Below are positions 43,111 through 46,619 of a stretch of DNA of 51,035 nt, one piece after another (positions within the stretch are counted from its first letter, which is position 1; the number at the start of each line of letters is the position of its first letter). Where the stretch lies: positions 1-51,035 of the forward strand of contig NZFU01000034.1 of the NCBI GenBank assembly GCA_002689345.1, given 5' to 3'. The notes under the pieces were generated by a model. That model searched no databases. It was given only the letters and a program-made list of their open reading frames with translations, and was not told the DNA's origin. The position numbers and the translations under genes are program-made. The DNA comes from Methanobacteriota archaeon (GTDB lineage Archaea; Thermoplasmatota; Poseidoniia; Poseidoniales; Poseidoniaceae).

Positions 43111-44133
43111 ATGGATTTGATTCAGGCGGCTTGGATGATTCGTGATTTGGGCCAGCCAGTCAGTGCCATCCACATCGGTGATGAATCGTCTTTAATCGCC
43201 GGAGGATGGGACGGGGCATTGAAAAAATGGGACAAAGATGGCTCATTGGTTTGGGCTGTTCAATGCGAGGACCGCATTGAAACTATTCTACGAATCAAAG
43301 AATTGGTTATAGTAACATCAGGCCTACACATTACTTGTGTTAAACAAGGAGAAATTCAATGGAGTAATCCATTGGAAGGCTCAGCCGATTTGCTTTGTTA
43401 CCATAATGGACAAATCGTAGCAACCTCTAGCGTTTATGATATTGAACATGGAGATTTTATGGAAAGTGCAATTTGGAAATTTTCTCTAGATGGCGAATTA
43501 CTCGAGGTATCTCGAATGGATGAAAGACCTTGGTTTGTTCAATCTACAAAAAATTTGATTTTTGGACTAGGTAGGCCAAAATGCGGGTTGTTGATAGATG
43601 ACGTCCACCATGAATTATCTAGCAATTCCCCAGTTACTTGTGGAGCATCAAGCCCAGACAATGCCCTGTTTGGACATGCGGACGGCACAATTTCTTCTAT
43701 TGATGGAGTAATCACTAAGGAAGAATCTTCAATCGAATCTTTGGTTTGTACAAAAGATGGCTTTATTGCAGCTCTTGAATCCGGAGTTCTAATTTCTAGG
43801 GGCTTAGATGCAACTGAGATTTGGAGAAACGAAGGCGTACAGATTACAACACAATCTACCGGATTCAATAATTTGCATTGGTGTGGAAGGTCTCAGGAAA
43901 ATTCTGGAATCATTGAAGTGAGAAATATTGCTGGCGAAATAGTTGCAAAAACAAACACAACTCGTCCCAGGGTTTCTACCGCTATTGAAAATAGAGTTGC
44001 TATCGGTTTTGAAGATGGTCAGATTTTAGTTTGGGAAATGGAATTGTTTGAACGCCGCTCAAATGAAAAATCAATAGAGACAGATGGCCGAAGATCTGCC
44101 CTGGCTGCAAAGCTTCGTTCACTACGAGAATAA
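43111..44133 (+). CDS. beta-propeller (WD40/PQQ-like) protein
   Basis: LIAGGWDGALKKW, LFGHADGTI, VAIGFEDGQILVW blade motifs; charged helical C-terminus. Confidence 0.75.
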   Translation: MDLIQAAWMIRDLGQPVSAIHIGDESSLIAGGWDGALKKWDKDGSLVWAVQCEDRIETILRIKELVIVTSGLHITCVKQGEIQWSNPLEGSADLLCYHNGQIVATSSVYDIEHGDFMESAIWKFSLDGELLEVSRMDERPWFVQSTKNLIFGLGRPKCGLLIDDVHHELSSNSPVTCGASSPDNALFGHADGTISSIDGVITKEESSIESLVCTKDGFIAALESGVLISRGLDATEIWRNEGVQITTQSTGFNNLHWCGRSQENSGIIEVRNIAGEIVAKTNTTRPRVSTAIENRVAIGFEDGQILVWEMELFERRSNEKSIETDGRRSALAAKLRSLRE

Positions 44134-44153
44134 TGTTATTTCTTGCACTAATA

Positions 44154-44206
44154 TTCCAGTGGAACCAGTGGAAACCATGCTCGCAACCCCTCATTTCCGC
44201 TGGAAA
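44154..44206. promoter_or_regulatory. palindromic TTCC-N3-GGAA sites upstream of the putative large RNA
   Basis: TTCCAGTGGAA (44154-44164), second CCAGTGGAA copy (44165-44173), TTTCCGCTGGAAA (44194-44206). Confidence 0.35.
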
Positions 44207-45130
44207 ACAGTCAAAAAAAGCGTAAAGTTTATTTGCCTCCGCTACCCACCTGAATAGTGCCGCTCCACAAGGAGTGGTGGAGGACTTCTTCGGAAAGCCT
44301 CCGGGACCCTTGCCAACCGGCCTGCTCAAACCGAGCAAAGCGTTGGTCACAAACTCTGGAGACAGAGCAAGTGAGGCGACAGGGGAGATTCGAAATCTTC
44401 GGAGATCGAAAGTCCCCACCGCCCACAGGATGATTTGGAGCCTAGGCGAAAAATCAGCTACAGGACTTTCGGGAAATGTAGTACAGGGAGGGCCACAACT
44501 TGTTGTGGAATTACCAATGACTGTGCATTAGCCGGGAGGTGCAATAGTAACAGTTCTTCGGGACAACTTCTGTTGCAATTAACGGCCGGTGAAAAAGTTT
44601 CGACTTGGACACCACGGACGGAAACCGAACCAGGGATGCGACCTTCGGGAAACAAAACTGGAAACGGACCAGCCACGGACGGAAACCGCGCCACATACTT
44701 CTTCGGAAGTGAGTGGAGACGGACCTCCATGGCCGAAACCGAATCTAGGAATTACCTTCGGGAAATTCATAGAAAACGGACGGCTACGTCGGAAGGAAGC
44801 ACGATCACTTCGGTGAAAATGCGGAAAACCAACGACCGGTAAAGAGGAACACAACCTTCGGGAAGTGGAAATCAATACCACCCTGGAAATGGAACACTTC
44901 GGTGGGAAATTAACAGAAACTCGGCCGCCGGGAAGAAGGCAACTTGGAAACAAGCTGTCAACGATCTGGAATTTACTCTTAGGAGTGAAGGAAGGTGACG
45001 ACGACTCGGCAGTCACCAGCGGAGGCTGGCAGGGGGGCGGATATCCCACCCGGATGAAACCCCCCTGCCAGTTCTCCCATCCTGCTTTCACAGGTAATCG
45101 GGTGCCAGTGCGTACCGCTTATGACTGTTG
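44206..45130 (+). ncRNA. large highly structured non-coding RNA of unknown family (~800-925 nt)
   Basis: Nine CTTCGG plus one TTTCGG on +, none of the reverse (CCGAAG); GNRA and CUUG hairpins; G-U pairs valid only on +; long-range closing helices; no credible ORF. Confidence 0.85.
44612..44781 (+). repeat. three tandem ~57-61-nt structural modules inside the ncRNA
   Basis: Exact 16-mer CCACGGACGGAAACCG at 44612 and 44673, variant at 44727; each is followed by a UUCG-capped helix and A(A/G)ACGGAC. Confidence 0.85.
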
Positions 45131-45169
45131 AGGCCCTACTTCTTACCTACAACCACTTTTGTTTAGTGA

Positions 45170-46561
45170 TTATTTTTGTCCGGTCATTTCTTCAGGCCTT
45201 ACCCACTGATCGAATTCCTCATTGGTAAGATATCCTAGTTCCAAAGCAGCCTCTCTCAAGGTTGTACCTTCTTCATGTGCCTTTTTTGCAATTTTCGCAG
45301 ATTTATCATAACCAATATGGTTGTTTAATGCAGTAACTAGCATTAGTGAATTTTCAAGATGATTATTGATTACCTCGCGATTAGGCTCGATGCCTTCAAC
45401 ACACTTTGTCCTGAACGCACGCATCGAATCTGAAAGTATCCTAATACTGTGCAATAAGTTGTGGATCATCATAGGTTTGAACACATTTAACTCGAAATTA
45501 CCTTGGCTGCCACCTATTGTTATTGCAGTGTGATTGCCCATTACTTGACAGCACACCATCGTCATGGCTTCTGATTGAGTTGGGTTTACTTTACCTGGCA
45601 TTATAGATGAGCCTGGCTCATTTGCAGGAAGAGATAATTCTTGTAAACCACACCTTGGCCCTGAGCCTAGCCATCTTACATCATTTGCAATTTTCATTAG
45701 ACTAGCCGCTAATGTGTTTAGAGAACCGCTTGCAGAAACTACAGCATCATGTGCTGCTAATTGCGAAAATTTGTTTGGAGCAGAAACAAATGGCATACTT
45801 GTTTTCAACGCTATGGCCATGGCAACTCTGTTTGCAAATTCGGGGTGAGTATTGAGCCCCGTCCCTACCGCTGTTCCTCCAAGAGCCAATTCATGCAAAT
45901 CCTCCAAAACGAATTCGATACGACGAATATTTGCATCCAATTGTGCAACCCAGCCACTAGCTTCTTGGCCTAAAGTTAGAGGCACAGCATCCATCAAATG
46001 CGTTCTTCCAATCTTTACGATATCGGACCAAGCATCCGATTTTGCTGCAAGCGCGTCCCGTAGATCACTTAGGCTAGGAAGCAGATCGTTAGTTATCGCT
46101 TCAGCACCTGCAATATGCATTGCAGTTGGAAATGTATCGTTAGACGATTGAGCGCGATTTACGTGGTCGTTAGGATGAACTGGAGTTTTTGAGCCTAATA
46201 CACCACCTGCCATTTCAATAGCTCTATTTGCAATTACTTCATTTGCATTCATATTGGATTGTGTACCAGAGCCTGTTTGCCAGACTCTTAGTGGAAAATG
46301 ACCATCAAGGCCTCCCTTAAGCACCTCTTCCGCAGCCGCAATAATTAATTTTGAGACATCAGAATCTAATTGTCCTAAATCAGCATTTACCTTTGCAGCA
46401 GCCTGTTTTAGTATGCCAAATGCACGGATAACACCGCGCGGCATAGTATCATCGCCGATATCGAAATTTATCAACGATCTAGCGGTCTGGCATCCGTAGT
46501 AACGATCAGCAGGAACTTCCAGTTCCCCCATGGTGTCGGCTTCGATGCGCACGTCTCCCAT
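45170..46561 (-). CDS. fumC: fumarate hydratase class II
   Basis: [42 protein letters not shown]; ATG 46561. Confidence 0.97.
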
Positions 46562-46619
46562 GTGTAAGGGGGCGTAGGCGGTTGTCCATGTCCCTTTCCC
46601 TCTAGCAATCGTCAAAGGT

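Follow-up and report, generated by a model that had tools for sequence, protein, structure and literature searches.

The DNA analysed in this study (hereafter the window) is the 51,035-nucleotide (nt) stretch of contig NZFU01000034.1, assembly GCA_002689345.1, from a Poseidoniaceae archaeon. It contains a gene-free gap of 1,036 nt that encloses an array of three tandem RNA hairpin modules, M1 to M3. On one side, the gap is flanked by an open reading frame (ORF) on the + strand at 43111-44133, whose product has a weak WD40 match and is beta-propeller-like. On the other side lies fumC (fumarase C), on the - strand at 45170-46615. The modules are part of a predicted large non-coding RNA (ncRNA), which we call the host RNA. 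The features that concern the array are as follows; the scores are those of R1, a single-module covariance model built from 33 modules of different homologs.

44257-45095 (ends approximate), + strand: host large ncRNA, about 840 nt, predicted
44616-44674, + strand: M1, GG-AAA(44622-24)-CCG(44625-27)-AA-[CCAG..CC-UUCG-GG..CUGG]-AAA-CGG(44665-67)-A-CC; 60.9 bits
44677-44729, + strand: M2, GGA-C-GG-AAA-CCG(44686-88)-CG-[CCAC..UUCG..GUGG]-AGA-CGG(44720-22)-A-CC-UCC; 56.6 bits
44730-44786, + strand: M3, GGCCG-AAA-CCG(44739-41)-AA-[UCUA-G-GAAUU..UUCG..AAUUC-A-UAGA]-AAA-CGG(44777-79)-A-CGGCU; 59.3 bits

The three-module array

M1, M2 and M3 are adjacent paralogous three-tier hairpins of 53-59 nt each within 44616-44786, separated by spacers of 2 and 0 nt. 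Their common layout is [outer helix of 2-5 base pairs (bp)]-AAA-CCG-NN-[variable helix, mostly UUCG-capped]-ARA-CGG-A-[outer helix']. The CCG/CGG mini-helix thus stands between two internal loops, a 3x1 loop (AAA/A) on one side and a 2x3 loop (NN/ARA) on the other. Because both strands of the motif read 5'-A-R-A-C-S-G-3', the motif is pseudo-two-fold symmetric. The initial annotation, which was made from the letters of this DNA, had described three consecutive repeat units in one large RNA. This was borne out at the coordinates given above (R1 scores of 56.6-60.9 bits). Its helix coordinates also proved exact, for CCAG/CTGG (44630-33/44658-61) and CCAC/GTGG (44691-94/44713-16) and, in M3, for CTA/TAG plus GAATT/AATTC (44745-53/44764-72). 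The layout that it gave for the unit, CCAYGG-(A)C-NGAAACCG, had to be revised, since it mixed outer-helix residues with the motif; what is conserved is AAA-CCG...ARA-CGG-A.

R1 finds exactly three sites in the 1.68-Mb genome; within the 51-kb window these have E-values of ~1e-14 to 1e-16, with nothing else above noise. A motif-only descriptor, which asks for ARA-CCG, ARA-CGG-R and a minimum of flanking pairs and ignores the stem sequence, returned the same three sites and no others when both strands of the whole genome were scanned. Since R1 and the descriptor each return only these three sites genome-wide, the array is far beyond chance. The initial annotation had suggested a search with a single-module model for occurrences elsewhere. 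R1 gave none anywhere else in this genome, mRNA leaders included. Tandem Repeats Finder did not detect the array, because the module stems are too diverged.

The base pairing of the modules is supported by covariation. In an alignment of paralogs plus orthologs, 88.6% of the cells were paired versus 68% in shuffles, and double changes were found in 8/8 pairs of the outer and inner helices. In an alignment of 92 distinct modules, 85.6% were paired, and cells with double changes numbered 169 versus 48 expected. For both alignments, none of 500 shuffles (which pair at ~70%) paired as well as the module structure. These two sets were selected or aligned using the motif, and the unbiased support comes from a position-based alignment of 16 orthologous central domains, that is, of the part of the host RNA in which the array lies. 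RNAalifold on this alignment recovers the same hairpins independently. The full central-domain structure has 80 pairs, 38 of them with double changes, and pairs in 89.3% of the cells, a level that 0/500 shuffles reach; when its register is slid, pairing falls to 27-40%. The covariation between paralogous copies that had been noticed at first is thereby confirmed, and it is also present among orthologs. The outer helix of M1 covaries among orthologs as GAUG/CAUC, GGCG/CGCC, GGUG/CACC, GUCG/CGAC and UGAG/CUCA. M2 is the most conserved module; its flanks are invariant in the 16 orthologs and its variable stem has double compensatory changes in 8/10 pairs. In M3, double changes occur in 5/5 pairs of the outer helix and 3/4 pairs of the inner helix.

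The motif itself hardly varies. Among the 92 distinct modules, A7 is conserved in 98%, A8 in 88% (otherwise G), and A9 and CCG in 100%. On the other strand, A59 is conserved in 92%, position 60 is A or G, A61 is conserved in 100%, CGG in 97-100% and A65 in 97%. The sole core variant seen, CUG/CAG for CCG/CGG in M1 of locus L013, is compensatory. The stems of the paralogous modules share no similarity, and the loop bases and the identities of the three Watson-Crick pairs are kept.

Occurrence and evolution of the array

Of 24 same-genus genomes, 22 carry the host RNA. Its syntenic site is fixed, with the gene order HflX-like GTPase, domain-of-unknown-function (DUF) protein, beta-propeller protein, host RNA, fumC, unknown gene. 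The beta-propeller-like protein (43111-44133) is 51-68% identical among same-genus homologs; the 5' and 3' ends of the RNA (within 44200-45130) are nearly invariant. We considered the beta-propeller gene as a dedicated partner of the RNA. This was weakened by genomes G045 and G027, in which the gene abuts fumC without an intervening RNA.

With a pattern scan, the set grew by 20 named genome contigs and by 52 contigs from marine metagenomes. Over 78 loci, R1 gave 189 matches, which are always in tandem with gaps of 0-2 nt and number 1-3 per RNA. A single module is found in L017 and L050, and none in L045, whose RNA has 658 nt. Copy number therefore varies from 0 to 3 between species, a check that had been proposed beforehand. 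Across orthologs, M3 is long, short, degenerate or absent, and two hairpins that follow the array, H4 and H5, are absent from some lineages. In the clade of L018 (~1240-1360) and L019, the motif is strand-swapped and forms two tandem four-tier hairpins of the layout [outer]-GA-CGG-ARA-CGG-A-[8-bp UUCG stem]-AAA-CCG-CG-CCG-RA-[outer']. This strand swap indicates that the motif can be inverted with respect to the hairpin tip. In a tree of the conserved RNA ends, which has a midpoint root only, module-poor forms are deepest and forms with two to three modules stand in the crown; the module counts on this tree are approximate near the R1 threshold. Tandem duplication, loss, shortening and strand inversion have shaped the array within the genus, with 0 to 3 copies as the outcome.

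Two metagenome loci have unusual arrangements. In L096 (8423-8594 on the - strand of a marine metagenome contig), M1 is tandemly duplicated to give M1a, M1b and M2; M3, H4 and H5 are missing, and only H6, the last arm of the central domain, follows. On L073, a contig of 1,012 nt, the same M1 stands at both ends (315-373 and 950-1008) with an identical score; the probable cause is a repeat in the assembly or an artefact of circularisation.

Outside the genus, the array disappears and the host RNA does not. In 251 Poseidoniales genomes, R1 matches occur in 1 of 25 genera and always inside the same host RNA. By R1, no module was found in the 250 other genomes of the Poseidoniales, nor in syntenic loci scanned with the filters off. 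Searches with nhmmer located the 5' end of the host RNA at the same syntenic site in genera of Marine Group IIb (MGIIb), and in one case the 3' end as well. The host RNA lies between the beta-propeller gene and fumC in genus g1 and in the MGIIb loci examined. R2, a model of the host RNA 3' element (GCGGAG-[12-bp G/C stem]-CUCCCA), matches 45 of the 251 Poseidoniales genomes in 9/25 genera and both families, other genera of Marine Group IIa (MGIIa) included. In the MGIIa genera g12-g14, there was no host-RNA match, and the syntenic site is differently occupied.

What fills the centre of the RNA differs among these relatives. The version of genus g16 has ~590 nt and carries other UUCG hairpins in its centre, and in MGIIb versions the centre is filled by purine-rich repeats. 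A minimal RNA of ~340 nt was observed in L128 (~868-1205; genus g21, same family), where a 5' hairpin and the 3' element stand without a central domain, in a different gene neighbourhood of an AT-rich genome. The MGIIb homolog L055 (~790-1100) carries purine-rich short repeats, such as GAACTGGACGAAAGGAAAGG twice and GAACCGGACGWAAGGAAGG, and AACCG 13 times; its mini-hairpins CCGG-AAA-CC-GCAA-GG-AAU-CCGG recall the AAA-CCG half of the module. In L130 (735-1377; genus g11, MGIIb), a stretch of ~300-340 nt at the 3' end of the RNA, which holds the 69-nt 3' element, stands twice in tandem with 82-100% identity, and two R2 matches ~300-340 nt apart were found in 5 of the 10 g11 genomes that have an R2 match.

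The array is thus an expansion segment that is specific to the genus, in an RNA whose core occurs throughout the order. Because homologs outside the genus lack the modules, it is an accessory expansion and does not belong to the core function of the RNA. The initial annotation had tied its reading to the presence of the modules and the constancy of their residues in homologs. This held within the genus, where the modules are present and their residues constrained; in other genera, the host RNA has homologs but these have no modules. The array resembles the expansion segments of rRNA, RNase P RNA and telomerase RNA in that it is a lineage-specific insert in a conserved core, variable in length and branching and dispensable in relatives. 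Unlike them, it repeats one sequence-constrained motif and not generic helices.

Possible role of the array

The array may be a multivalent docking platform for a trans-acting partner. This is the reading that we prefer, with a confidence slightly below even. Each module would be an autonomous recognition unit, and the module copy number would set the valency of the platform. The partner would most likely be a protein, possibly a dimer because the motif is pseudo-two-fold symmetric. Since the loop bases and three pair identities are held while the neighbouring helices covary freely, base-specific recognition is suggested rather than folding alone. When the modules change in number, stem length or orientation, no compensation is visible in other parts of the RNA, and for this reason they appear to act singly, not through a fixed intramolecular tertiary contact. 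Independent, additive and sequence-constrained units are what a multivalent docking domain should look like. The module tips are mostly UUCG-capped, and UUCG caps rarely make tertiary contacts.

Several points weigh against a docking platform. The invariance of the module is inflated, because it was partly measured on sequences chosen by a descriptor or covariance model that requires the motif. In the position-based alignment, some lineages have a degenerate M3 (CCG/CGA in L008-L010). Because the host RNA of other genera works with no modules at all, these may be of minor importance. Internal loops rich in A are also well known as elements of RNA-RNA (A-minor) contacts. No candidate partner protein was identified.

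The A-rich loops lead to a different explanation, namely RNA-RNA packing, in which the loops are A-minor donors and the G/C mini-helices are receptors. Modules of the same or of different molecules would then zip side by side to give a rigid junction or homo-oligomers, as in ROOL, GOLLD and OLE. Conserved unpaired adenines do stand beside invariant G-C pairs, linkers of 0-2 nt force neighbouring arms together, and the pseudo-symmetric motif could pair with itself. The host RNA is also large, UUCG-rich and multi-branched, like the ornate RNAs. On the other hand, copy number (0-3), stem length and orientation vary without compensation, which is hard to square with contacts of fixed geometry, and no covariation signal was found for any long-range partner. 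We consider packing, the chief competitor of the docking platform, unlikely, at about one chance in four. OLE, ROOL and GOLLD are bacterial ornate orphan ncRNAs whose structures were determined by cryo-electron microscopy (bioRxiv 10.1101/2024.12.08.627333). The host RNA is like them in being large (~340 to 1000+ nt), multi-branched and lineage-restricted, in being more conserved than the neighbouring genes, and in having peripheral hairpin arms with conserved internal loops. It differs in that it is archaeal and has no Rfam match, and in that the array is a genus-specific insert and does not belong to the conserved core. The segment might instead be largely neutral, having arisen by replication slippage or tandem duplication in a tolerant region, with conserved residues that reflect local folding needs. 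The central domain is absent from g21 and different in g16 and MGIIb, other segmental duplications occur in the family (e.g. the 3' duplication of g11), and M3 decays or is lost in several lineages, all of which would fit. Folding alone, however, would let CCG/CGG covary as the neighbouring helices do, and the loop bases and three Watson-Crick pair identities are instead held in paralogs with dissimilar stems. Moreover, the flanks of M2 are invariant in 16 orthologs, whereas the neighbouring protein gene is 51-68% identical. A neutral origin of this kind seems improbable to us.

Tandem ligand aptamers are a still less attractive explanation. The pairs of internal loops would be pockets for small molecules or ions, as in the tandem domains of glycine or NAD+-I riboswitches, and a repeated hairpin of ~55 nt with conserved internal loops and variable stems is compatible with this. 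But the module lies inside a stable large RNA rather than an mRNA leader and has no visible expression platform; it stands upstream of no gene in the genome, and no riboswitch of Rfam matches, even at E<=10. We regard aptamers as very improbable. The CsrB/RsmZ analogy of the initial annotation, taken here as a sponge whose single-stranded A(N)GGA words would titrate a CsrA-like protein, fares worst and is scarcely tenable. It started from the count of seven ACGGA words in 44614-44780, which is correct for the + strand; 41 others occur in the remaining 51 kb (both strands), so the word is ~100-fold enriched in the array. However, three of the seven words are the 3' core A-CGG-A of the modules, in which GG is not in a loop: the CGG is paired with CCG in a 3-bp helix (97-100% of the 92 modules), and the CUG/CAG variant is compensatory. 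The other four belong to a doubled CCACGGACGG, which makes up strands of the outer helices of M1 and M2. A search of 16 genomes for CsrA (PF02599) gave none, with positive controls in E. coli, B. subtilis and T. maritima. The array shares with CsrB, CsrC and RsmX-Z a short word repeated on tandem hairpins, a copy number that varies between species and the idea of multivalent titration. In those RNAs, GGA in loops or single strands binds CsrA, whereas here CGG is paired, the unit has three tiers and 45-60 nt, and CsrA is absent.

The module is possibly an unrecognised autonomous RNA recognition motif, although we rate this below the docking platform and would not call it likely. It would be an 'adenine-clamped' CCG/CGG mini-helix, (5'-ARA-CSG-3')x2, that recruits a dimeric protein or mediates RNA-RNA oligomerisation, with the valency of the scaffold tuned by gain, loss and inversion of modules. 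Among the closest known motifs are the kink-turn and other autonomous internal loops bound by L7Ae-family proteins. Like them, the module is self-contained, has a purine run of 3 nt on one of its strands and is reused in either orientation to the tip. In the kink-turn consensus, a canonical and a non-canonical stem enclose a bulge of 3 nt and, after it, tandem sheared G.A/A.G pairs. The module instead places a G/C helix of 3 bp between its 3x1 and 2x3 loops and has no tandem sheared G.A pairs by a bulge. A kink-turn reading of the loops was rejected, since C-C-G and C-G-G-A stand beside the AAA run and there is no GA/GA tandem. A box C/D-like reading of the inner loop of M1 was also dropped; the consensus is not fitted and the feature is not shared by M2 and M3.

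If this reading of the module is right, the host RNA would give archaea their first example of a multivalent scaffold or sponge RNA, and if the fold of the module proves distinct, a new internal-loop motif would join those known from RNA structures. The archaea of Marine Group II, which are still uncultured, rank with the most abundant in the plankton, and the array is the best-resolved part of their large ncRNA. A compact motif of ~15 nt, natural variants in copy number and orientation, and a sister genus as a control with no central domain make the question of binding or assembly tractable without culture.

The host RNA outside the array

No description of the host RNA was found in the literature searched, and as far as that literature shows, it is an undescribed ncRNA of Marine Group II archaea (Poseidoniaceae). 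The one related report concerns Tan1 (Thalassoarchaea ncRNA 1; Hou et al. 2016, PMC5069720), an MGIIb ncRNA of 229 nt that was seen in metatranscriptomes and is abundant, structured and unclassified. By description only, the two are alike as structured, unclassified Marine Group II ncRNAs and differ in size and lineage (229 nt in MGIIb versus ~840 nt in MGIIa). Rfam 15 gave one gathering-level match over the window, a tRNA, and none in the gap. The Rfam families, among them OLE, ROOL, GOLLD, HEARO, raiA, riboswitches, the signal recognition particle (SRP) RNA and RNase P RNA, gave only chance-level matches at E<=10 in 44000-45300. The minimal homolog of ~340 nt likewise matched no Rfam family.

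The gap has a G+C content of 51-53% versus ~42% in its flanks and is purine-rich and poor in T (17%). TTCG words number 12 in the 839 nt of the RNA (14.3/kb), compared with 3.5/kb in the rest of the window. The RNA was assigned to the + strand because of its G-U pairs, its UUCG loops and an upstream promoter element. Folding energy was no help in choosing the strand (z = -3.5 for the + strand versus -4.3 for the - strand). The other features of the host RNA are as follows.

44220-44236, + strand: putative archaeal promoter, BRE/TATA-like GCGTAAAGTTTATTTGC, consensus-based; nearly invariant in the genus
44583-44586, + strand: 5' strand of the closing helix, CGGC; partner GCCG at 44924-27 (93.8% of cells) or 44927-30 (RNAalifold register, ~98% including G-U)
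44588-44613, + strand: H0, optional UUCG-type hairpin, GGTG..AAGT-TTCG-ACTT..CACC
44787-44834, + strand: H4, three-tier CGU..GCA-[UCAC-UUCG-GUGA]-UGC..ACG with GGAAGGAAG-type purine loops
44838-44879, + strand: H5, GGUA..CAC-AA-CC-UUCG-GG-AA-GUG..UACC
44883-44916, + strand: H6, last junction arm, CUG..CAC-UUCG-GUG..CAG; 95.8-100% paired
45015-45081, + strand: conserved 3' element, GCGGAG-[12-bp G/C stem]-CUCCCA; R2 94.8 bits

The element at 44220-44236 is the putative promoter (B recognition element (BRE)/TATA-like) of the host RNA. An equivalent, CGAAAGGTTTAT, lies upstream of the homologous RNA in 3/4 MGIIb loci; L052 has a TTTAT-like word only. Protein coding was rejected, as the longest open frame changes strand and frame among homologs and no ORF is conserved. 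Indels among homologs (31, 32, 14, 13, 1 and 2 nt) are not multiples of 3. Two ORFs, 44435-44842 (+) and 44579-45091 (-), of 135 and 170 amino acids, cross the RNA; their frame and strand are unconserved, and gene mis-annotation is possible.

A diverged RNase P RNA was suspected from a GAAAGUCC-like word at 44411-18 and was rejected because this stretch is poorly conserved. The identification of the host RNA as RNase P RNA (RF00373) was also rejected, since a separate gene of ~297 nt (188-233 bits) is present in 12/13 related genomes. RF00373 was not found in the genome of the window itself (G000, a 77%-complete metagenome-assembled genome (MAG)) and is present in 12/12 relatives searched; the missing gene presumably sits on an absent contig.

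The central domain (~44583-44930) is a multi-hairpin junction with the arms H0, M1, M2, M3, H4, H5 and H6. It is more likely closed by CGGC at 44583-86 with GCCG at 44924-27 or 44927-30; the register is left ambiguous because different orthologs favour different registers. The initial annotation had instead closed the block by GCCGGT/ACCGGT (44585-90/44835-40). Over the 16 orthologs, this helix is paired in 65.8% of the cells, which 441 of 500 shuffles equal, and it competes for bases with the hairpins H0 and H5. H0 is present in 8/16 aligned orthologs, with a clean deletion of 31-32 nt in the others; its tip helix is 100% paired and its outer helix only 56% (alignment A2). The hairpin at 44787-44834, which had been taken for a degenerate fourth unit, gives no R1 match. 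It is H4, a hairpin conserved in its own right, whose middle helix is GCA/UGC and whose loops are rich in purines. Its tip helix is 92.9% paired, its outer helix covaries in the RNAalifold register, and it is missing from L014, L015, L016, L020 and L096. In H5, the outer helix covaries (GGUA/UACC, GGUU/AACC, GGUG/CACC) and the inner helix has double changes in 5/5 pairs. H6 is kept in all architectures seen, that of L096 included.

The hallmarks of the Poseidoniales large ncRNA family, a 5' hairpin UGCCGCUC..GAGUGGUG and the 3' element with its long G/C stem, are both found here, and the stem of the 3' element covaries between MGIIa and MGIIb. Partial second copies of the RNA, with 77-98% identity, were observed on other contigs of the same MAGs (G010:C103:1887-1966 and G017:C45:2-450). 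These copies are likely due to strain heterogeneity or contig-edge duplication within the bins.

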